64,000 nt of DNA from an uncultured Chloroflexia bacterium (GTDB lineage: Bacteria; Chloroflexota; Limnocylindria; Limnocylindrales; CSP1-4), in contig CAVVJT010000010.1 of NCBI GenBank assembly GCA_963748625.1, positions 224,001 to 288,000 on the forward strand, given 5' to 3'. Shown here in pieces: positions 51,827-64,000 of the stretch. A program made the position numbers and the translations under genes. The notes beneath the pieces were generated by a model that saw nothing but the letters and a program-made list of their open reading frames with translations, searched no databases and was not told the origin of the DNA. Every line of letters begins with the position of its first letter. Position 1 is the stretch's first letter.

Positions 51827-53755
51827 CTACTCCAGGTAGTCCTTGAGCTTGCGACTGCGCGACGGATGCCGCAGCTTGCGCAGCGCCTTCGCCTCGATCT
51901 GGCGGATCCGCTCGCGGGTGACATTGAACTCCTTGCCCACCTCTTCCAAGGTCCGAGCGCGGCCATCCTCCAGGCCGAAGCGCAGTTGGAGGACCCGCCG
52001 CTCCCGCCCCGTCAGGGAGTCGAGCACGGCTTCGACCTGCTCCTTGAGCAGCTGGTGGCTGGCGGCTTCGGCCGGGGCGAGGGCGCCTCGGTCCTCGATG
52101 AAGTCACCGAGGTGCGAGTCCTCCTCCTCACCGATCGGCGTCTCGAGCGAGACCGGCTCCTGCGAGACCTTCATGATCTCACGGACCTTCTCGGGCGTGA
52201 CGACGACGACGATCTCGGCCTCCTTCTCCTTCTTCTTGGGCGGCTCGATATCGATGTCCCGGCCGACCTCCTTGACGTTGAACCCGTCCTCCGGAAGGCC
52301 GGCGAAGTCCACCTTCGAGCGGTCGGCCAGCTGGAGGAGGACGCCCGGCGTCTTGTCGCCACGCACCTCGAAGGACACGATGTTGTCGCGCCCGCCGACG
52401 GCCGTGAAGATGCGGGTCGTGTTGTCCGGCCCCAGGGTCATCGCAAGGGCGATCTCCTCCACCGTGGGCTCGCGGCCCAGGTCCTGGAGGAGCTGGCGCG
52501 ACACGCGGATCAGGCGGTTGATCGTCTCGACCATGTGGACCGGGATCCGGATGGTCCGGGCCTGGTCCGCGATGGCGCGGGTGATCGCCTGGCGGATCCA
52601 CCACGTCGCGTAGGTGGAGAACTTGAAGCCCTTCTCGAAGTCGAACTTCTCCACCGCCCGGATGAGACCGATGTTCCCCTCCTGGATCAGGTCCAGGAAG
52701 CTCATGCCGCGCCCGATGTACTTCTTGGCGATGGACACGACGAGGCGCAGGTTGGCCGAGGTGAGCTGCTCGCGGGCGTCACGGCCGATCTTGACCACGT
52801 CGCCCTTGCGGTCGCGCATCTTGGTCTGGGGCGGGACCTCGGGGTCAAAGCCCATGCGGCGCAGCAGGTCGGCATCGTTGCCGGCCTCGATCCAGCGCTG
52901 GAGCGCCGGGTAGGCGACCTCGTCGCGCGTCCAGTCGTAGATGGCGCGCAGGCCGGGGTTGTCGCGCGAGTCGAGATCCCCGTTGTGGACCGAGAGATAG
53001 GACCAGTCGAGAATCTCGTTGAACGCTGCCGCTGTCGGCGCCTCGTTGTAGGCTGCCAGCTTCTCCTTGGCCTGCTTGAGCAGCGCCTTGGTACCGTCGG
53101 ACTGGGCGTCCTTGGCCAGCTTGGTGTACGCGATCTCGGGTCCCGGAACGAGCAGGTCGCTCGCGCCGTCGGCGGCCAGGGCATCCGCCACCATCTGGTG
53201 GGTCTCGGGACCGAAGGGCAGCCGGTGCTGCGACTTCGCGGTGCGGGTCTTGCGCTCCGTCTCGTGGAGGGTCCACTCGTGCAGCGAGACGATCGCCTTC
53301 CACGGCTCCACGATGATCTGCTCGCCCAGCTCGATCGCCTTGGCGAGGACGACCTCCTCCTCCGCGGTGAGCAGCGCGACCTTGCCGATCTCCTTGAGGT
53401 ACATCCGGACCGGGTCGTCGATCCCGATCATGTCCGCGGAGAGCGCCTCCAGCTCCTCCGTGGACGGCTCCTCCACCTCGGCGGCGTTGAGCTTGGGCGG
53501 GGCGTCCTCGGTTGGCACCGGGACGCCCTCGATGGCCTCCTCGGTCACGATCTCCAGGGAGAGCTCCGGCTCCTCGGGCAGGAGGTCGATGTCGTCCTCG
53601 TCGTCCTCGTCGTCGGACGGCGCTGCCGGCTGCACGGCCACCGCGGCGGGCGCAGCCTTCCTGCCCGACCGGCGGGCGGGCTTCGGAGCGGCCGGGGCCC
53701 CGACTGCCTCCTCGGCCTCGACTGCCTCCGGGGCGATGTCGGTCTCGTCGGTCAT
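51827..53755 (-). CDS. rpoD: Primary RNA polymerase sigma-70 factor with region-3 insertion
   Basis: [46 protein letters not shown]; downstream of dnaG. Confidence 0.95.
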
Positions 53756-53819
53756 AGGGTCGAGGTCCTCCCGGGTGGCTGGAACGGCGCTGGGACGCAT
53801 GGAGCGGGTCATGTGGGGG

Positions 53820-55766
53820 TCACGCCGTAGCCGCCCCGGCACGGGTGAGAAGGCGGGTCTGGTCACGCCGGCGGTCAAGCGACCGGCGCTGCTCGTTGAG
53901 GAGCCGGCGCTCGAGCATGAGGCGGTCAACCGACTCGGCGTCACCGTCGCGCTCGGCCTCTGCGGTGGCGTCGCGGTTGAAGCCGCTGCGCTCCTGCCAC
54001 TCCACGTCGTCCAGCTCGAGCATGAGACGCTCGATCTCGTACTTGAGCGAGCGGTCGCCGAGATCGCGCGGATTGGGTCCGGGCCGGCTCACGAGGGCCT
54101 GGCCGAGGGCCCGGCTCTCCTCGTCGAGCCCGTCGAGCACCGCCGTGAGCGAGAAGGCCGGCCGGACCCCGTGATCGTCCCGGGTCCGGGCGATCACCAC
54201 GGCGCGGTAGAGCTCACGGGCCACCTGGGACGGCAGGCGATCGGGTCCGAGGCCGTCGAGGACGGCGTCATGCGTCTCGGGCACGAGCAGCACGAGCCGC
54301 AGGAGCTCCTGCTCCGTGCGTGAGACGCCGCGCAGGATGTCGGCCACGGGCAGCGCGTCGGGCGCCCTCGTGACGGCCTCAGCGGTGAAGCGGTCGCGAC
54401 CGTCCTGACCGCCGCGGCGGTCGTCGCCGGCCGGGCGCCGGTGGAGCGCCTCGAGCAGGGTCCGCTCCTCCACTCCGCTGACCTGGTGGACACGGGCGAG
54501 GTAGCCGTCACGCATCACCGGGTTGGGCAGGTTGCGGATGATCGGCAGGACGGCATCGACGAAGCGGGCGCGGCCGCCTGGCGCGCGCAGGTCGTGGACG
54601 CGGGCGTGGACGTCGATGAGGTAGTCGATGATCGGCTGCGCGGTCCGGACCTCCTCGCGCCAGCGGTCCGGCTCGTCCCGGATCACCTCGTCGGGGTCCC
54701 GGCCCTCGGGAAGGCGGACCACGCGCACGTCGTCGAGCTCCACGCCCGAGTCGTCCGGGGCCAGCTGGCGGATCAGCTCCTCGAGCGCGGTGGCGCCGAA
54801 GGTGCCCGCCTTCTGGCCCGCAGCGTCGACGTCGTAGGCGAGCGCGATCCGCTTGCCGTACCGGGTGATCAGGGCGACCTGCTGCGGCGTGAGCGCCGTA
54901 CCGAGGCTGGCGACCACGTTCTCGAAGCCCGCCTGGTGGGCCATCAGCGCGTCGGTGTAGCCCTCGACGATCACCGCCTGGCCGGTCTTGCGGATGGCGC
55001 TCTTGGCGCGGTCGACCAGGTACAGCGTGCGGCTCTTGTCGAACAGCGGCGTGGCCGGTGAGTTGAGGTACTTGGGGCCGCGATCCCGGCCGTCCTCGGT
55101 TGGCCCCTCCTTGCCCAGGATCCGGCCGCCCAGGCCCACCGGGTGCCCGTTGGCGTCGCGGATCGGGAAGATCACCCGCTCACGGAAGCGGTCGTACACG
55201 CCTCCCCCACGCTGGCGCGGGCTGGCCAGGCCGACCTCGAGCAGCTCGTCGGGGCGGACCTGCCGCTTGGAGGCGAGCTGGCGGGCGAGCGAGTCCCAGC
55301 CGCCCGGCGCCCAACCGAGCTGGTGCTTCTCGATGGTGGCGTCCGTGAAGCCGCGGTCCTTGAGGTACGCGAGGGCGGCCTCGCCCTGCTTCGACTTGGT
55401 CAGGACCGCGTGGTAGAAGGCGATCGCGGCCTCCATCACGTCGCGCAGGCGGGCGGCGCGGGCATCCTCGCGCTTGGTCCGCTCGTCGATCTCCACCCCG
55501 GCCCGCGCGGCCAGCGCCTTGAGCGCCTCGGGGAAGGCGACCTGGTCGCGCTCCATGACGAACGTGAAGATGTCGCCGTGGAGGCCGCAGCCGAAGCAGT
55601 GCCACGTGTCGCGCACAGGGGTCACGACGAAGGACGGCGTCTTCTCGCCGTGGAACGGGCACAGCCCCTTGAGGGTGGTGCCGGCCTTCTTCAGCTGGAC
55701 CGTCTCCCCGACCACGTCAGCGACCGGTAGGCGACCCTTGATCTCGGCGACAACGCCGACCGCCAA
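53820..55766 (-). CDS. dnaG: DNA primase
   Basis: CPFH...CFGC zinc finger, KYLNS, VEGYTD, DVDAAG; GGAGGAG RBS before TTG. Confidence 0.96.
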
Positions 55767-55818
55767 GCGCGCTCCTCCCCGAATTCCCTGGGCTCGTACC
55801 GGCGGAAATGACGACGGA

Positions 55819-55925
55819 CCTGTCAAGTCTTGACAGGCCTCGCCAGCGATCGAGAGTACCCCCGGTCACCGGTTCCGGCAAGGAACCACGGGCGTTGTCA
55901 AGTGCCGTGTCAAGAGGCTGTCAAG
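55819..55925. promoter_or_regulatory. Five TGTCAAG/CTTGACA motifs upstream of dnaG-rpoD
   Basis: Copies at 55821, 55829 (inverted), 55896, 55908 and 55919. Confidence 0.55.
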
Positions 55926-56315: not shown

Positions 56316-57983
56316 TCAGGGTGGCGCGGGCTGGGTCGTGAGCCACTGGTGGGCGGCCAGGACATCGAGCCGCCCGGATCCGTACGCGTTGTCCGCGCCG
56401 GCAGGACCCAGGTCGATTGCGGAGGCCTCCAGGGCCGCTGCCTGTTGGGCAACGGTGAGGCCCGGGTGCGCCCCCAGGAGCAACGCGAGGGCGCCGGAGA
56501 CATGGGGGGCGGCCATCGATGTGCCGCTTGCGGTCTGGTAGAGCCCATATCGGTCCGCCGAGCGGATCCCGACACCCGGTGCAACCAGCTCCGGATAGGT
56601 CGTCGACGGCTCGCCACAGGCTGACGGGCCACGGCTCGACGTGGGGTCGACGACATCGGCTCCATTCACGGCGCCGACTGCCAGCGCCTCGGGGAGGTTG
56701 GCCGGACTCACACTCGTGCCCGCGGACGGGCCTTGGTTGCCAGCGGCGAAGACCGGCAGGATGCCGGCTGCCAGGACGGCCTGGAGGTCCGGCTGGAACT
56801 CCAGGCTGCAGCCGATGGTGCCCGACGCCCAGGAGCTGTTGAGCACGTCAGGGGCGTCATCCGTCCCGGGATCCCCGTCCGGGTCCAGGATCCACTGGAA
56901 CGCGAGGTGGATTGCGGTTGTGGTGGCCGCACCTGCGTCGTTGAAGATCTTCGCTGCGATCCAGGTCGCCCCCGGGGCCATGCCGATGGTGGTGCCGCCT
57001 GCGTCCCCTCCGACGATGACGCCCATGGTCGCCGTGCCATGGCCGGTCATGTCGACGGGCAGGTCGGGATGCTGGCCATACGGGTCAAACCAGGAGTTGG
57101 CCCCGCCTCGCCAGCGGGACGCAAGGTCCGGATGGTAGGCGTCGACGCCGGAGTCGAGGCTTGCGACCACGACGCCCTGGCCGGTGTATCCGGACGACCA
57201 CATCGCGGGTGCGTTGACGGCGGCGATGTTAGCCTCGGGCGGGCCGAGGGGCGTCGGCGTCGGCGTGGGTGCGATGGTCGGCGTGGGCGTCGGCGTTGGC
57301 GTGGGTGCGATGGTCGGCGTGGGCGTCGGGGTGGGCGTTGGCGTTGGCGTGGGTGCGATGGTCGGCGTCGGGGTGGGTTTGGGCGATCGCGTCGGCCGGG
57401 GGGTTGCGGTCGGGCGGGGCGTTGCGGTCGGGCGTGGCGTGGCGGTCGGCCGGGGGGTTGCGGTCGGGCGTGGCGTGGCCTTGGCCCGGGCCCTCACGGC
57501 AGGTCGTGCAACCGGCGTCGGCTCGGTACCCCACAGCGGCACGACGCCGGCGTCATCGCTCAGCACGGCGGCCACATCCGGGCGCCCCGCGATGGCGCGG
57601 ATCACGGGTTCCGACGCGGTCACCGAGACCGCGTTGACCACCCACAGGGGAACCACACGAGCGACGCGCCCCCGCGCCCGTTCGCCTGCGAGGACGTCCA
57701 GGAGCTGCGCCTGTGCGGTGGCAGCATGGTCGCGGAGGGCCCGCTGCACGCCTCGCAGCGCCGCACGCCGACCCACCCGCGGAACGCGGCTGAGGTCCGC
57801 CTGCGAGCGCAGCATAACCACCACGGTGCGCATCCCCGCCGGCGTGCCGTCGGGGAGCGACACGCCGGCGGGACTCCCGATGCGCGGGACGCTGGTCCGT
57901 TCCGAGGCCGCACTGCCGGTCGCGCCCGGAGGGGCTATGGCCAGCAGCGCCACGATCAGGACGGCGACGGGGACCCTGCGCAT
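56316..57983 (-). CDS. Secreted S8 serine peptidase with Pro/Thr repeat linker
   Basis: [22 protein letters not shown]; PTATPR and PT repeats. Confidence 0.9.
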
Positions 57984-57993
57984 CGGTTTGACC

Positions 57994-58566
57994 TCAGCTC
58001 TGTGCTGCGACCGGCTCGAGCCGGATCGCGTCGATGACGACGGAGACCGGTACGCCCGCCTGCACGAGCCCACCCGAGTTCGGGAACAGGAGGAAGTAGC
58101 TCGCGCCGTCGGCCAGCTCGAGCTTGTGCGCGCGCGGCTGGGGTGCCCGAAGGACGGCCCCGTTGGCGGTGAGCAGCTCGGGCAGGGTGGCCGCGTCGTG
58201 CAGGATGTGGTCGGCCTTGTTCTTGTCGAGGACGGTGAAGCGGAGGTCCACGAGTCCCCCGTCGGCGGTCACCGCCACGAGGTTCACGCGGATCCCGTAC
58301 TCCGCCTCCATCTCGCCTTCGGACACGACGCGCGCGTCTGCGGCGTTCCGCGCGAAGAGGTCGGTGAACTCCGCGGTCCATGTGATCGCGGCGGTCACCA
58401 TGACCGGCAGGACGACGGCTCCAGCGAGTGCCGCCAGCCACGGCCGCACCCGGAGTCGTGCCCGTCGGCGCTCCGCCGGCTCCGGTGAAGCCGGCGCGGG
58501 ATCCTGGGCCTCCGGTACCGCGGCCGGGAGGCCGCGGTCCAGCTCGGTTCGATCGATGGTTGTCAT
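57994..58566 (-). CDS. Membrane-anchored hypothetical protein of the cupredoxin cluster
   Basis: One TM helix, then [21 protein letters not shown]...FPNSGG. Confidence 0.75.
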
Positions 58567-58570
58567 GGCG

Positions 58571-61500
58571 TCAGGGCAGGTCGAACGCGTCGACGTCGAG
58601 GTTGCCGGCGGTCAGGCCCTTGGCGGTCCCGTCGAAGTAGACCGTCCAGGTCCCGCCGTTGAGGTAGACGACGTCCTCGTCCTGGACGGCGCCCAGGCCG
58701 GGCACCGTCGTGTCAGCGCTGTACGAGAGGTAGATGTGTGTGGCGTCGACCCGGACGAGGCCGTCCACGTTGGCCGTGGACCACCCCAGCGCCGAGGCGT
58801 CGTGCACGCGGGCGTAGACGCTGCCGTTCCAGCTGTAGATGTCGGCGTCGTCGCCGCCACCCGTGACGCCCGGCGGGATGTCGGTGTCGTCGGTCGAGAA
58901 GTAGAGCGTCCCGCCGGCGATGGTGATCGCGTCGAGGTCGGTCCCCGCGAGACCGTTGGCGCTCCCGTCGAAGTAGAGCGACCAGGTGCCGGCGTTGAAG
59001 TAGACGACGTCCTCGTCGGCGACGGTGCCCACGCCGGGAACCGCCACGTTTCCGTTGAAGGAGACATAGAAGTGGGTGGCGTCGACCTGGTCGAACCCGT
59101 CGACGTTGGCGCCCGTCGGCAGCGAGTACGGTGCCGCGGTGGCGTCGATGGTGCGGCCGAAGACCGACCCATCCCAGAGGTAGATGTCGGCGTCGTCCGC
59201 CGTTCCGGCGACGCCGGGCGGGTTCGTGCCGCCGGAGGTCGAGAAGTAGAGCGGGGTGATGACCGTGTAGACCTGGCCGACGAACGGCAGGCCCGCGGTC
59301 GGCAGGGCGTTCCCTGCGACGTCCTTGATCCCGGTCGCCGAGGTGAGGTTCAGGCCGAGGGTGCCGCCGTTGGAGCCGGTCGAGGCCGTCACGGTGCGCG
59401 TGGAGCCAGTTCCGGTGACCGACGAGATGGAAGCGCCCGACAGGCCGCCCCCGCCCACGAGGGTGAAGTTGCCGCTCGTGACCCCGGTCACGGTCTCCGA
59501 GAACGTCACGAGGAACGAGACGCTCGCCGCGGAGGTGGGACTGGGATCGACCCGGTCGATGCTGCCGATGGTCGGCGGCGTCTTCTCGATCACGAGGGTG
59601 GTCGTGCTCGCAGCGCCCCAGTTGCCGGCAGCGTCCTTGCCGCGGACGTGGATGGTGTGGTTGCCCACGCTGAGGAGGTTGATCGTCGTCAGCGGGATGT
59701 CGGCGTAGACCGCCTCCGTGGCAGCGTTGAAGACGCTGTCGGAGGCAACGAACACGAAGCCCGTGCCGGTGGCGCCGACGGTGTCGATGAACCCCTCGCC
59801 CGCGGCGATGGCGCTGTTGCCCGATGCGGTGTCGTCGATCGTGGCCGTGACGCGGACCGACGGATTGCTGCTGGTCACGCCGAGCGAGCCGCCGTTGGGG
59901 TTCGGGGTGGCAGTGACGCCGGTCGTCGTCGGACCGGTCGCGTCGGAGGCCAGGGTGATCGTGACGAACGGGCCCCAGTTGCCGGCGGCGTCGAGTGCGC
60001 GCACGGACACCACGCCGGACTGTCCGGCAGGGATGGTGGCCGTGATGGCGGCGACGGTCGCGACGTGGTTGAGCGTCATGCCGATCCCGGTGCCGGGGGC
60101 CCCGGTCGCGCCGACGAAGTACTCGGCGGCGACAACGTTGCTGTTCCCGGTGGTGACGTCGCTGGCCGTGCCGGCGAGCGCCACGGGGACGCTGCCGTCG
60201 GACGAGCTGGGGGTCAGCGTCAGGCCGCTCACGGTGGGCCCGGCCATGTCCAGGGTGATCGTCGTGGCGGCGAACGATCCCCAGTTCCCGAGGGCGTCGC
60301 GGCCGCGCACGTACACCGTGTGCGTCCCCGAGGTCCAGGCGCTGGTGTCGATCTCGCCCGAGTTCGTGGTGACCGCCTCGGCCACCTCGTCGAACGCCAG
60401 GTCGGCGGCCGTCATCGGCAGCGCCGTGCCCGAGTCGACCTTGTACTGCGCGGCGTCGATGGTCGTGCCGCCGGTCGCCGCGTCGTCCACGGTCGCCGTC
60501 AGCGTGTAGGTGCCCGGCCCTGCCGGCGTCAGGGTGACGCCGCTCGTGACCGGGCCCGCCGTGTCCGTGCCGGAGGCCGTGCCGGCCGCATCCACGAGGG
60601 CCAGCATCCCGCCGATGCCGTAGACGGAACCGACGTTGACGTTGCTGTTGTTGAGCAGCATTGCCGCGTCATAGATCGGGTACTTGGTCGAGGTCGTGGC
60701 CGACACCGGGACGGCGGCGAGGACGTCGGCGGTCTGGCCCGGAGCCAGGGTGTCGGCGACCATCGTCCGCGGCGCCGGCAGGAGGCTGCCATCGGTCGCC
60801 AGCATCCGCTGGGGCAGGCCGAGCGCGCCAATCGAGTGGTGCAGGATCCCCGCGTTCACATACCTCAGGAGCAGGGAGTTCCCGCCCGTGGTCGTGATCG
60901 AGGAAGCCGTCGACGAGTAGGCCGCGCCGTTGACGAGGAACCACTTCGGGGCGAAGGCGCGGAGGTCGAACGTCCAGGGCGTCGCGCTGCCGTTCAGGGC
61001 CGGATCGATCTCGCCCAGCACGACGAGGGCCTCATCGTCGAAGGCGGTGGACGCGGCCGCATAGGCCTGCATGGGGGCGCCGACCGGCCTGACGACCAGG
61101 GCGCCGTAGAGGCCCATGGCCACCTGGTACTCGGAGCCCGGGATCAGCCCCGCCTCGTAGAGGTAGGTGCCCGGATCGTCCGCTGTGAACGTGTACACCT
61201 TCGTGCCGCCGCCGGCGGTCGCGCCCGTGATGTCGGACGCGATCGCCTGGCCGCCGAACTGGATCGAGGTCGGGCGTGACAGCGTGTTGTGGAGCGTGAT
61301 CGTGACCTGGTCGCCCTCGTCGGCGACCAGGACCGGTCCCGGAGCCTTGGCGGGGAGGGACGCCGACGGGGCGAATCCCCAGATCGTCGCCGTTCCGCCG
61401 CCGGGCAGCGAGACCGTCCCGGTCTTTGCCCACAGGTCGCAGGCGACCGTGGTGCCGCTGTCGACACAGGCCGGGTTCGGGCCGGGATCGATCGGCCCGG

Positions 61501-61603
61501 CGGCCGCGGCGATTCCCGGGACGAGCAGCGCCGCGAGGGCGAGCGCCGACCCGAGGGCCGCCGAGGAAAGGATGCTGCGCTTCATCGTACGTTCCGATCG
61601 CAT
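58571..61603 (-). CDS. Secreted cupredoxin-domain protein (copper ligands degenerate) with Ig-like repeats
   Basis: PGPVLVADEGD, PGTYLYE, MGLYG; DAAGNW repeats; acidic C-terminal repeats. Confidence 0.85.
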   Translation of the reverse strand: MRSERTMKRSILSSAALGSALALAALLVPGIAAAAGPIDPGPNPACVDSGTTVACDLWAKTGTVSLPGGGTATIWGFAPSASLPAKAPGPVLVADEGDQVTITLHNTLSRPTSIQFGGQAIASDITGATAGGGTKVYTFTADDPGTYLYEAGLIPGSEYQVAMGLYGALVVRPVGAPMQAYAAASTAFDDEALVVLGEIDPALNGSATPWTFDLRAFAPKWFLVNGAAYSSTASSITTTGGNSLLLRYVNAGILHHSIGALGLPQRMLATDGSLLPAPRTMVADTLAPGQTADVLAAVPVSATTSTKYPIYDAAMLLNNSNVNVGSVYGIGGMLALVDAAGTASGTDTAGPVTSGVTLTPAGPGTYTLTATVDDAATGGTTIDAAQYKVDSGTALPMTAADLAFDEVAEAVTTNSGEIDTSAWTSGTHTVYVRGRDALGNWGSFAATTITLDMAGPTVSGLTLTPSSSDGSVPVALAGTASDVTTGNSNVVAAEYFVGATGAPGTGIGMTLNHVATVAAITATIPAGQSGVVSVRALDAAGNWGPFVTITLASDATGPTTTGVTATPNPNGGSLGVTSSNPSVRVTATIDDTASGNSAIAAGEGFIDTVGATGTGFVFVASDSVFNAATEAVYADIPLTTINLLSVGNHTIHVRGKDAAGNWGAASTTTLVIEKTPPTIGSIDRVDPSPTSAASVSFLVTFSETVTGVTSGNFTLVGGGGLSGASISSVTGTGSTRTVTASTGSNGGTLGLNLTSATGIKDVAGNALPTAGLPFVGQVYTVITPLYFSTSGGTNPPGVAGTADDADIYLWDGSVFGRTIDATAAPYSLPTGANVDGFDQVDATHFYVSFNGNVAVPGVGTVADEDVVYFNAGTWSLYFDGSANGLAGTDLDAITIAGGTLYFSTDDTDIPPGVTGGGDDADIYSWNGSVYARVHDASALGWSTANVDGLVRVDATHIYLSYSADTTVPGLGAVQDEDVVYLNGGTWTVYFDGTAKGLTAGNLDVDAFDLP

Positions 61604-61623
61604 GGTCGTTCCCCTACCTCTCA

Positions 61624-63030
61624 TCACGGACAGGTGTTGGGCAGGGGCGGATCGACCCTCGTGTAGGTGATCGGCCCGGTCATGTTCACGCCCCACGACG
61701 TGAGCTGGTAGAGCGCGTGGTTGTGGGCGATGATGTAGAACTCGCCGCACTCGTTGAGGGTCTGGACGCCCGGTGGCATCGCCTCCTGGACGCCCAGGTA
61801 CGGGCTGCCGCCGTAGAACATCCCGATCGTGAGGTTCTGCAGGTCGGGCTCGGTGGCCGGGACCGTGTTGGATGGCGAGTAGCCCTCGGCGTCGCGCCAG
61901 TCGAAGAGGACGTCCCAGGTCTGTCCCGGCCCGATGTTGACGGCGAACTTGTCGAACGACAGGTCCTCGGCCGCAGCGCCCTCGAGCGGCGCGCCGTCGC
62001 GCCCGATCACCTTGCCGTTGTTGCCGTGAGGGTGGAACGGGAAGTCCATGCTGCCCACGCTCAGGTAGCGGTCCACGGCCGGCAGCGGGTTGGAGGTGGC
62101 GTCATACGGGAGGATCGGGGCCAGCGACCCGTAGGGCTGGCTGGGCAGCCACGACGCGAAGTTGTCCGCGATGCTGTCGGGGAACCCCCGCCCGTTGATC
62201 AGCCAGTACCGCGGGTGGTACGTGTTCATGTTGAACGCGTTCCCCTTGAGGACCCTGGCGTTGAGGTAGGGGTCGATCTCCGAGAGCAGCACGAGGAACT
62301 CCGATGACTGGGTGGCCGTCGGCGCCTTGAACTGGGAGTCGGCCCGGTTGTAGACAAAGGTGTCACCCATCGCCGGGCGGACGATCAGGGCTCCGAAGAG
62401 TCCCATCCGCACCTGGACCTGGGGGCTGGCGTAGGGACTCGGGGTCCCACTCGACTTCTGGCCGCCTCCGCTCTCGTACAGGAAGGTGCCGGGCTCATCC
62501 GCGACGAAGCTGTAGGTCACGGTCCCGCCGCCGGGCTGGGCCGCCTGGGCGAGCGAGGTCATCGTCGTCCCGCTGAACTGCGGCTGTGACGGCACGCCGT
62601 TCGCGGTGACGTTCTCCTGGCCCGGGAACACGATGGACACGGCCGGCGCGTTCTTGGGGGACGTGGCCGTGAATGTGTTCTTCAAGATCACGGTCACCGT
62701 GTCTCCCTCGTGGACGCACAGGACCGGCCCGGGATGCTGGAACGGCTTGTTGCCCTCGGAGAAGCCCCACATGTACGCGGTGGTGCCGTCCGGCAGGTTG
62801 ATGTACCCCGAGCGCGTCGTCAGGTTGAAGGTCGGGTTGGGGCCGCCTTCCGTGCACACGATGCCGATGGCATTGCTGCCCTCGGTCGCGGCCGTCACGG
62901 GCCGCGCGGCGGGCGGCGACAGCAGCACCCCGAAGACCAGGATGGGCGAGACCAGCAGCGCCAGCCAGCGGCGGGCGCGTGGGCGCGTGGACCGTTGCAT
63001 CGTCATCACTCCGCTCATCACCGCACTCAC
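61624..63030 (-). CDS. Secreted two-domain cupredoxin protein with HxH motifs only in domain 2
   Basis: PGPVLCVHEGD, MGLFG, FHPHG, AHNH; start uncertain (63000-63030). Confidence 0.85.
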   Translation of the reverse strand: MSAVMSGVMTMQRSTRPRARRWLALLVSPILVFGVLLSPPAARPVTAATEGSNAIGIVCTEGGPNPTFNLTTRSGYINLPDGTTAYMWGFSEGNKPFQHPGPVLCVHEGDTVTVILKNTFTATSPKNAPAVSIVFPGQENVTANGVPSQPQFSGTTMTSLAQAAQPGGGTVTYSFVADEPGTFLYESGGGQKSSGTPSPYASPQVQVRMGLFGALIVRPAMGDTFVYNRADSQFKAPTATQSSEFLVLLSEIDPYLNARVLKGNAFNMNTYHPRYWLINGRGFPDSIADNFASWLPSQPYGSLAPILPYDATSNPLPAVDRYLSVGSMDFPFHPHGNNGKVIGRDGAPLEGAAAEDLSFDKFAVNIGPGQTWDVLFDWRDAEGYSPSNTVPATEPDLQNLTIGMFYGGSPYLGVQEAMPPGVQTLNECGEFYIIAHNHALYQLTSWGVNMTGPITYTRVDPPLPNTCP

Positions 63031-63998
63031 GCCGGGTCGTCCGGGTGCTGGTTGGGGTAGGCCTGCGCCGGGAGCGTCCCGGCCGGGTACACATGCACCT
63101 CCGTCCGCTGGCCTCCGCCGTCCCCCACGAGGTTGTCGCCACGCGTGTAGGCGCGGTTGTAGAGCACGTAGGTGTCGTAGCCGTTGCCGCTCGAACCGGA
63201 GCCACCGCTGAAGGCCGGGGCCGTGAGGATGACGTCGAAGCTCTCGCCGGCGCCGAAGGAGAGGGTGTTGGTGCCATAGCTCGTACTGGCACCGCCGCGT
63301 CCCCGCATCCGCGTGGCATCCCGCCCGACGACCTTCATCTTGATGCCCTCGATGGTCATCGCCGCCTCCATGAACCCGAGGTTCGCGAAGCGGAGGAGGA
63401 CCCGCTCGCCGGCATTGGCCGAGACGAGCGCCGAGTTGGGCTGGGCGGCCAGGTCGGGACGGCCCGAGGGGTAGGCCAGGTCCCAGTTGGCGTCCCGATC
63501 CGGGTACACGTTGAAGTTCCGGTTGGAGGGCGTCGGATTGTCGCCCTGCCGGGCGACGGAGCCGTTTGGCAGGAGCGTGTCCGGGTAGACCCGGCCGTTG
63601 AGGAGGCTGAAGTCGGCCCGGTAGTCGCTCCACTCCGGCAGCTGGATGTGGGCGTCCGCCCAGTGGGAGTCGCCCCACACCTCGGACAGGAACATCGCGT
63701 ACTCGCGGTCGAAGCCCGTTGAGCCGTCGCCATCGTTGTACGCGTACTTCCCACTGGGGTAGAGGGACGTGTTGCCGTCCTGCGCCGGCCGCACGAACAC
63801 GATGCCGGTCATCCCCATGTGCACGTGCTCCGTGTCCTCCACGTGGCAGTGGAACATGTAGGTGCCGGGGTCACGGGAGACGTACACGTAGGTGAACGTC
63901 TGGCCCTGCGGGATCGAGACCGAGCCGGTGGGCTCGCCGTCGAAGAACGGGATGACGTTCTTGAAGCCGTGCCAGTGGACGGTGTGCTCGTCGAACAG
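63027..63998 (-). CDS. Multicopper-oxidase-domain protein with type-1 Cu site in domain 1 (5' partial)
   Basis: HTVHWHG and FHCHVEDTEHVHMGM; runs off the window edge. Confidence 0.88.
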   Translation of the reverse strand: MFDEHTVHWHGFKNVIPFFDGEPTGSVSIPQGQTFTYVYVSRDPGTYMFHCHVEDTEHVHMGMTGIVFVRPAQDGNTSLYPSGKYAYNDGDGSTGFDREYAMFLSEVWGDSHWADAHIQLPEWSDYRADFSLLNGRVYPDTLLPNGSVARQGDNPTPSNRNFNVYPDRDANWDLAYPSGRPDLAAQPNSALVSANAGERVLLRFANLGFMEAAMTIEGIKMKVVGRDATRMRGRGGASTSYGTNTLSFGAGESFDVILTAPAFSGGSGSSGNGYDTYVLYNRAYTRGDNLVGDGGGQRTEVHVYPAGTLPAQAYPNQHPDDPA

Positions 63999-64000
63999 GT

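Follow-up and report, generated by a model that had tools for sequence, protein, structure and literature searches.

Two-domain multicopper oxidases (MCOs) form trimers whose trinuclear copper clusters lie where domain 1 of a chain meets domain 2 of its neighbor. To our knowledge, every MCO described so far, whether built of two, three or six domains, carries all eight histidines of this cluster on one polypeptide. In the type-C two-domain MCOs, represented by the blue copper oxidase of Nitrosomonas europaea (3G5W) and the metagenomic mgLAC (2ZWN), each chain has all eight, four per cupredoxin domain (the second motif pair having been seen in 3G5W), and the type-1 copper is held in domain 1; both proteins are reportedly homotrimers, in which three identical chains yield three centres. 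Here we describe a gene module at one end of a 64,000-nucleotide stretch of DNA from an uncultured Chloroflexia bacterium (G000:C10:224001-288000; “the window” refers to this whole stretch), in which three consecutive paralogous genes, termed A, B and C, likewise encode two cupredoxin domains each. The motifs of the type-C enzymes align with HxxHxH and HCHx5Hx4M of A, but here the halves of the centre lie on separate gene products and the third paralogue is without ligands, so that no more than one centre could form per ring. Given its ligand split, paralogy, shared fold, conserved gene order and co-occurrence, the explanation we favor is that the module encodes a split MCO that is obligately heteromeric.

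A reduction to one centre is familiar from larger MCOs. According to the passages of PMC3600357 used here, six-domain MCOs arise by triplication of a two-domain unit and keep at most one trinuclear centre. A-B-C shares the six-domain count and this reduction with ceruloplasmin, hephaestin and bacterial MnxG-type proteins; at most one trinuclear centre is available per A-B-C set, only domain 1 of A (A-d1) and domain 2 of B (B-d2) together reaching eight histidines. Ceruloplasmin-type proteins are single chains, whereas A, B and C are three genes, each ending in a stop codon of its own and encoding a separate signal peptide, and no A-B or A-B-C fusion occurs among 39 longer A homologues. The same passages place the cluster-adjacent type-1 copper of ceruloplasmin and of the bacterial six-domain proteins in the second domain of the unit (PMC3600357). 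In A-B-C it is in the first domain, in keeping with a type-C origin, and this difference argues for an independent route to the same end state.

Other MCOs are likewise accompanied by further gene products encoded nearby, as in Bacillus Mnx (MnxG with MnxE/F) and the fungal POXA3-type enzymes. MnxG is a complete MCO chain, and its partners MnxE/F are not MCO paralogues. In the fungal laccase-like heterodimers the partner is a small non-MCO POXA3-type subunit (PMC10443355, abstract). Both systems differ from A-B-C in that the MCO chain is complete and the trinuclear ligands are not known to be divided between subunits. Non-identical chains also occur in Nmar_1354 of Nitrosopumilus maritimus (9CCK), an alpha-alpha-alpha' heterotrimer and one of the best fold matches of A and B. 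The passages available on this protein state that two-domain MCO clusters form at unit interfaces; they describe chains that derive from one gene, vary only by an extra cupredoxin domain and each carry a full ligand set, unlike those of A-B-C. Full-text literature searches, with subscription journals and supplements outside their scope, returned no description of a divided trinuclear site, and “heteromeric”, “heterotrimeric” or “split multicopper oxidase” had zero occurrences as exact phrases in the searchable full text; passages of manganese-oxidase papers mention a “multicopper oxidase complex”.

Division of copper ligands among A, B and C

Domain 1 of A carries the motifs HTVHWHG (H148, H151, H153) and HCH..EH..MGM (H193, C194, H195, H201, M206), which comprise the type-1 ligands H148, C194, H201 and M206 and the cluster histidines H151, H153, H193 and H195. 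Domain 2 of A is ligand-free (AAMTIEG and YVLYNR), with T358/E360 and Y423/R425 occupying the columns of the domain 2 HxH pairs. In B, domain 1 is stripped (SIVFPG, FLYES) and domain 2 holds HPH (H333, H335) and HNH (H436, H438) without the type-1 cysteine. C, with SIQFGG, YLYEA, HHSIG and IYDA at the corresponding places, has none of the eight cluster histidines and no type-1 cysteine. The type-1 site is therefore confined to domain 1 of A, B and C having no cysteine at the aligned position, and the cluster histidines are distributed as four in A, four in B and none in C, a set of eight that is complete only as A plus B.

The three proteins are paralogues by profile-profile comparison (A against B, probability 99.8%, E 7e-29; B against C, probability 100%, E 1e-55). 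In these alignments SIVFPG of B and SIQFGG of C fall column for column on HTVHWHG of A, FLYESG of B and YLYEAG of C fall on MFHCHV of A, and AAMTIEG of A and HHSIGAL of C fall on FPFHPHG of B. All three match Pfam Cu-oxidase families (Cu-oxidase_2, Cu-oxidase_3 and Cu-oxidase in A). Gene A runs past the window edge. The sequence-only reading had proposed the complementary division from the visible part, on the strength of motifs that all proved to be present, and named additional HxH motifs in the missing 5' part as one finding that would undo it. The contig continuation shows an ATG start with GAGGGAG just 5' of it, and beyond the edge A encodes the beginning of domain 1, up to its middle, preceded by a twin-arginine signal (TRRQLL). 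This stretch has just two histidines, H80 and H116, neither of them in an HxH pair, so that the full gene gains no further HxH.

A profile of 75 A-type sequences identified the type-C MCOs 3G5W (E 8e-16) and 2ZWN as the best solved relatives of A. HTLHWHG aligns on HTIHWHG, and YHCHVEDVEHVHMGM aligns on YHCHVNVNEHVTMRGM; it is from this alignment to domain 1 of 3G5W and 2ZWN that the type-1 and cluster ligands of A domain 1 were assigned. The earlier choice of SLAC-type (type-B) laccases as the reference was thus replaced, since the nearest solved relatives are type-C proteins with the type-1 site in domain 1. Compared with the type-C plan, a type-1 site with HxxHxH and HCH in domain 1 is present in A only, and the HxH pairs expected in domain 2 of the same chain are absent from A and sit on B. 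The IHAMHSHG stretch of 2ZWN domain 2 aligns on the ligand-free EAAMTIEG of A, which the A-B profile alignment in turn puts on FPFHPHG of B. By this transitive alignment via A, H333-x-H335 of B falls on the HSH of 2ZWN and is equated with the HxH of domain 2; H436-N-H438 occupies the position of HDH in the second domain of 3G5W.

Structure predictions support the fold, the models of both A and B resembling solved trimeric two-domain copper enzymes, MCOs as well as NirK, across both domains. The AlphaFold model of A (predicted local distance difference test, pLDDT, 75.7) matched 3g5w_A with a Z score of 23.1 (root-mean-square deviation 3.4 over 269 residues) and 2zwn_B with 22.9, nearly tied with NirK entries at 21–22.6. 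For the B model (pLDDT 83.5), the top Foldseek matches were 9cck, 4kns, 2zwn (template modeling score, TM, 0.71 on target) and 3g5w (TM 0.66). NirK binds its type-2 copper by three histidines, two from domain 1 and one from the neighbor's domain 2, and has an Asp/His catalytic pair. The paired HxH and HCH motifs of A are of the MCO type, and the NCBIfam model Cu_nitrite_red gave 24.8–34.7 bits against a cut-off of 296. In the monomer models pLDDT drops below 50 in two loops, A 159-167 directly after H151-W-H153 and B 439-450 directly after H436-N-H438, although both are invariant or nearly so in sequence; this would fit loops that become ordered only in a complex, a hint at most.

Conservation, co-occurrence and age of the ligand split

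The A family comprises 3951 proteins at E ≤ 0.001 among 8000 candidates scored, which the source databases name just “multicopper oxidase domain-containing protein” or “FtsP/CotA-like”. The best outside hit among these (90% identity) is labelled Acidimicrobiales. A scan of one-genome-per-species contigs matched at least 599 stretches, at least 576 of which encode relatives, and the best 80 loci were taken as clade 1. Carriers among these 80 span Chloroflexota, Actinomycetota, Myxococcota and Pseudomonadota, and include the cultured actinomycetes Nocardioides, Cryobacterium, Xylanimonas, Actinotalea and Phycicoccus. The gene order U-A-B-C-D-S8 recurs across these loci, U being a giant secreted protein upstream of A, D a small membrane protein and S8 a subtilisin-like protease. 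B lies directly 3' of A in 74 of the 75 clade 1 loci with room for it (≥1.5 kb), and C follows B in 69 of 71. L027 is the exception in both counts and L081, where C appears as split hits, in the second; L027 was rejected as a case of A without B, its B and C genes being broken by frameshifts. U was found upstream in 75, D in 60 and S8 in 59 of the 80 loci, counts that are uncorrected for room.

Ligand columns were counted over the 80 related loci and the window's own proteins. H148, H151, H153, H193, C194, H195 and H201 of A are kept in all 81 rows, and M206 is invariant in the 75-row A alignment. In B, H333 and H335 occur in 79/79 rows, H436 in 76/79 and H438 in 77/79, the remainder being gaps; C has no invariant histidine or cysteine in 74 rows. 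The A, B and C alignments were restricted to near-full-length, stop-free rows (74 of 76 for A, without L027 and L063, 70 for B and 65 for C, each plus the window protein). Mean pairwise identities are 0.748 for A-d1, 0.686 for B-d2, 0.675 for A-d2, 0.671 for B-d1 and 0.53 for both C domains. The ligand-free domains A-d2 and B-d1 are thus still conserved. The three proteins also show correlated pairwise distances (r 0.65–0.73), as joint inheritance predicts.

A second, more distant clade was reached through the longer A homologues (n = 39). Many of these are proteins of 2000–2300 aa with a U-like body (SdrD-B, beta-helix and cadherin-like parts) that end in an A-like two-domain MCO with 32–39% identity to A. 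Among the A-like MCOs, two of ∼820 aa (P0135 and P0138) may represent another fusion context of the family, precomputed Pfam annotation adding PF22778 and, in one of them, also PF01569 (PAP2). An alignment of three C-terminal parts from the U-A-like proteins served as the query for clade 2; in a metagenome scan it matched at least 600 stretches, at least 519 of them relatives, and the best 80 were kept. These are only 35–40% identical to clade 1. Where there was room, the counterpart of B (B') followed that of A (A') in all 54 loci and C' was present in all 39, and an S8 gene lies downstream in many. After removal of rows below length cut-offs or with stops, A' has H148, H151, H153, H193, C194, H195, H201 and M206 in 68/68 rows, and B' has H333, H335, H436 and H438 in 56/56, with an extra histidine at column 330 that completes HxxHxH. 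No HxH was found in 47 rows of C'.

With both clades counted, about 150 sequences of type A and 135 of type B show the ligand split without variation. The claim that A-d1 and B-d2 hold complementary ligand sets and C none withstood every comparative test that was run, and the split is real, strongly conserved and ancient. A quick IQ-TREE search on 72 rows (12 random picks per group) united A of both clades with support 100, B with 96 and C with 96, and placed B and C together against A with 100. The sequences group by gene and not by clade, so that both the triplication and the division of ligands are older than the two clades.

Some candidate features were set aside. Three further invariant histidines of A were considered as hidden ligands. 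H255 was rejected as a family-wide histidine, most B sequences having it at the aligned column and, in clade 2, most C sequences too; H116 and H260 were rejected as well, neither being kept in clade 2. The charge pair A-R425/C-E150 covaries between clades and was considered as a sign of contact between A-d2 and C-d1, but it was dropped because E150 lies at the Cys-equivalent column and B-E186 behaves alike.

Co-occurrence was also assessed in an evenly drawn random sample of 301 Chloroflexota genomes, with an A threshold of E ≤ 1e-60. A was present in 9 genomes (10 copies) and B in 10, and B lies ∼80–160 bp downstream on the same strand for all 10 copies of A. The additional genome with B (G321:C2:401510-404264) is not a case of B without A, as A-like pieces in several frames adjoin a B-like gene whose frame is broken by TGA codons at three places; the copy represents either a decaying module or error-rich or mis-assembled sequence. 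Neither A without B nor B without A was found in the 80 + 80 best-scoring loci or the 301 genomes, although the sequence-only reading had allowed that homologues of A might often stand alone. Its expectation of a conserved gene order was likewise borne out, B and then C following A throughout both clades where there is room, barring L027 and L081. The genome of the window has one copy of A, and A is absent from 24/24 congeneric and 16/16 same-order genomes; the distribution of the module is patchy. One Ardenticatenaceae genome carries two distant A-B pairs (G041:C1:212993-215729 and G041:C1:4212284-4214925).

Organization of the module and associated proteins

The module occupies a run of co-directional minus-strand genes at 56.3–64.0 kb of the window, with ∼70% G+C (Table 1). 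The genes are tightly spaced: the start of B overlaps the stop of A as GTGA, C, with a GAGG-type site ahead of its start, begins 20 nt past the end of B, D starts 4 nt past the stop of C, and the likely start of the S8 protease gene, the last conserved gene of the module, is 10 nt past the stop of D. The Big_13 and Y_Y_Y matches in the middle part of C are below or near the Pfam cut-offs. For A, B, C, D and U, NCBIfam and Pfam gave only generic MCO, S8 and beta-helix matches and no specific family. The protease has a long Pro/Thr-rich linker between pro-region and catalytic domain (window ∼57200-57500, minus strand). Genes for dnaG (primase, 668 aa) and the principal sigma-70 factor (705 aa) adjoin the module (window 51827-55826, minus strand), and the absence of the module from the 24 congeneric genomes suggests that it was inserted beside this conserved housekeeping locus.

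Table 1. Features of the A-B-C module, with positions in the window, and clade 2 loci in which U' and A' share a frame.
Feature	Position	Strand	Description
Gene A	63027-64427, crossing window edge at 64000; in-window 63027..64000	(-)	466 aa, two cupredoxin domains
Gene B	61624-63030	(-)	468 aa, GTG start, Sec-type signal, two cupredoxin domains
Gene C, whole	58571-61603	(-)	1010 aa, two-domain cupredoxin + repeats
Gene C, N-terminal part	60569..61603	(-)	Sec-type signal + two ligand-free cupredoxin domains
Gene C, middle part	59267..60568	(-)	Immunoglobulin (Ig)-like repeats; weak Big_13 and Y_Y_Y matches
Gene C, C-terminal part	58571..59266	(-)	Two ∼112-aa repeats (YFST..DDADIY.W.G...), without Pfam match
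Gene D	57994..58566	(-)	190 aa, one predicted membrane helix + conserved beta-rich domain of ∼110 aa
S8 protease gene	56316..57983	(-)	Subtilisin-like serine protease, Peptidase_S8 E 3e-45, Pro/Thr-rich linker
U'-A' in one frame			Loci L084, L088, L093, L127, L128, L132, L134, L139, L143, L161

U contains SdrD-B, TIG and right-handed beta-helix parts. In 10 of the 52 clade 2 loci with a U hit, U' and A' share one open frame (Table 1), and such fusions tie the oxidase physically to this giant secreted protein. P0124 (1845 aa, 71% identity) was not accepted as a further U-A fusion; it is likely a read-through gene call, with the Tat signal of A retained mid-protein. At L002:1982-10883 (window-equivalent 64481 onward, outside the window) U is spread over two frames, frame -3 matching residues 1-775 of relatives and frame -1 the rest. 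Two repeats lie between these parts within the coding sequence, one a tandem repeat of 216 bp (4.7 copies with 99% identity) and the other of 30 bp. Either the frameshift is genuine or the repeat was misassembled.

Hits of the C-terminal repeat module of C (Cc[405-629]) also lie within the U and S8 open reading frame (ORF) spans of the actinobacterial loci L020, L007 and others. The Ig-like repeats and the twofold ∼112-aa module of C are suggestive of a common anchoring device. In 12 loci (L056:12705-14828 and 11 others) the ORFs between B and C code for repetitive proteins made of carboxypeptidase-regulatory-like beta-sandwich units, none of them an MCO paralogue. Gene D was considered as a copper chaperone and rejected, no histidine, methionine or cysteine being conserved in 61 rows.

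The export signals differ among the chains. A of clade 1 has the canonical S/T-R-R-x-F-L-K twin-arginine translocation (Tat) motif in 76 of 80 loci. Twin-arginine matches in B (20/78, with a loose pattern) and C (5/73) are fewer, and both look Sec-type, with more hydrophobic cores. Unfused A' of clade 2 is also Sec-type, the Tat pattern occurring in 5 of 63.

A putative heteromeric oxidase and its alternatives

The module would encode a secreted MCO in which the plan of the two-domain MCO trimer is built from three different chains. Domain 1 of A would supply the only type-1 copper site (H148, C194, H201, M206) along with H151, H153, H193 and H195, and domain 2 of B the remaining cluster ligands H333, H335, H436 and H438. 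A single trinuclear, O2-reducing cluster would then form at the A-d1/B-d2 interface, electrons from the substrate reaching first the type-1 copper, then the cluster by way of the H193-C194-H195 bridge, and finally O2. Under the interface rule of two-domain trimers, this ligand split gives a complete centre only where B-d2 faces A-d1; with that pairing the ring closes through A-d2 with C-d1 and C-d2 with B-d1, which are exactly the four ligand-free domains, and both of these interfaces would be copper-free. The Ig-like repeats and C-terminal repeats of C would serve to anchor the enzyme, either on the cell surface or on U, and the gene module would also include the S8 protease and D, the small membrane protein. 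The whole may act as an extracellular oxidation machine that C, and in some cases a fusion of A itself, attaches to U, for example in the oxidation of metal ions or the cross-linking of a surface matrix.

We consider it probable that A, B and C form an obligate heterotrimer of this kind, with one type-1 site and one trinuclear centre at A-d1/B-d2 and with C as a copper-free tether, in effect an unfused ring resembling ceruloplasmin. That the chains assemble, that they do so in a 1:1:1 ratio, that the complex contains copper and is an oxidase, and that C tethers it are inferences from the sequences. Whether this six-domain ring is, in addition, a living counterpart of the hypothetical intermediate between two-domain and six-domain proteins that arose independently from a type-C ancestor and is mounted on U, is a proposition for which we judge the chances to be evenly balanced.

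Several observations weigh against the heterotrimer. Domain 2 of B alone gave 0 matches up to E 10 among the sequences of solved structures, so the ligand equivalence of B rests on transitive profile alignments and fold. In clade 1, A (Tat) and B and C (Sec) appear from their signals to be exported separately, and the complex would then have to form and be loaded with copper after export, which complicates the picture of a heteromer without contradicting it. No natural A-B or B-C fusion occurs among the 39 longer A homologues, the binding of the chains to one another is a prediction, and A:B:C stoichiometries besides 1:1:1 may exist. C is also less conserved than A and B (0.53 against 0.67–0.75 mean pairwise identity), and in 12 of the 80 clade 1 loci it is separated from B by 0.7–2.1 kb of other ORFs. 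These last two points, and the large non-oxidase parts of C, would suit an A+B catalytic pair with C outside the ring, the third place going to another copy of A or of B, or else A and B forming a dimer or larger assembly, and C being a copper-free, surface or adhesin-like pseudo-enzyme. We regard this arrangement as unlikely, since C follows B in 69/71 clade 1 and 39/39 clade 2 loci with room, both of its cupredoxin domains have been retained since before the clades split, and an A-A-B or A-B-B ring would leave half-sites unpaired.

The heterotrimer also has to be set against readings in which B contributes no ligands. A might act alone, as a homotrimer or on U, as a blue-copper electron carrier or with an incomplete NirK-like or binuclear centre, B and C being non-catalytic binding or structural paralogues. 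In favor of this, A shows the highest conservation among the three proteins, carries a Tat signal of its own in clade 1, occurs in some relatives as a fusion with U in which B has no part, and matches NirK folds (Z 21–22.6) nearly as well as two-domain MCOs (Z 22.9–23.1). The invariance of the domain 2 histidines of B in two clades (H333/H335 in 79/79 and 56/56 rows) is, however, hard to explain if B is non-catalytic; the paired HxH and HCH motifs of A are identical in type to those of 3G5W and would differ from the single-His pattern of NirK; and A was never found without B in the loci and genomes examined. We therefore hold a solitary A to be distinctly improbable. Least credible, to the point of being very improbable, is that the proteins are no oxidase at all and form a copper-binding or sequestering surface layer, or are decayed relics kept for structural reasons on U. 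Four of the six domains are ligand-free, the module is rich in surface-type domains, and catalysis is here a prediction from sequence, yet a complete type-1 site and exactly eight cluster histidines have been kept without exception over deep divergence, which argues for selection on catalysis and not on structure alone.

If the split heteromeric MCO is correct, a catalytic centre that exists only where two paralogous subunits meet would represent a new quaternary logic for this well-studied class of enzymes. It would offer a natural test case for the passage from a homo-oligomer to an obligate hetero-oligomer by complementary loss, and a concrete model of the step from two-domain trimers to ceruloplasmin-type proteins. 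Because the genes are annotated as ordinary multicopper oxidase domain-containing proteins, expression of any one of them would wrongly report inactivity. The occurrence of the module in cultured carriers (Nocardioides, Cryobacterium, Phycicoccus, Xylanimonas and Actinotalea) makes the idea directly testable, and its reach, with at least 576 relatives in contigs that represent each species by one genome and at least 519 more in those from metagenomes, extends over hundreds of species in which such an enzyme would operate.

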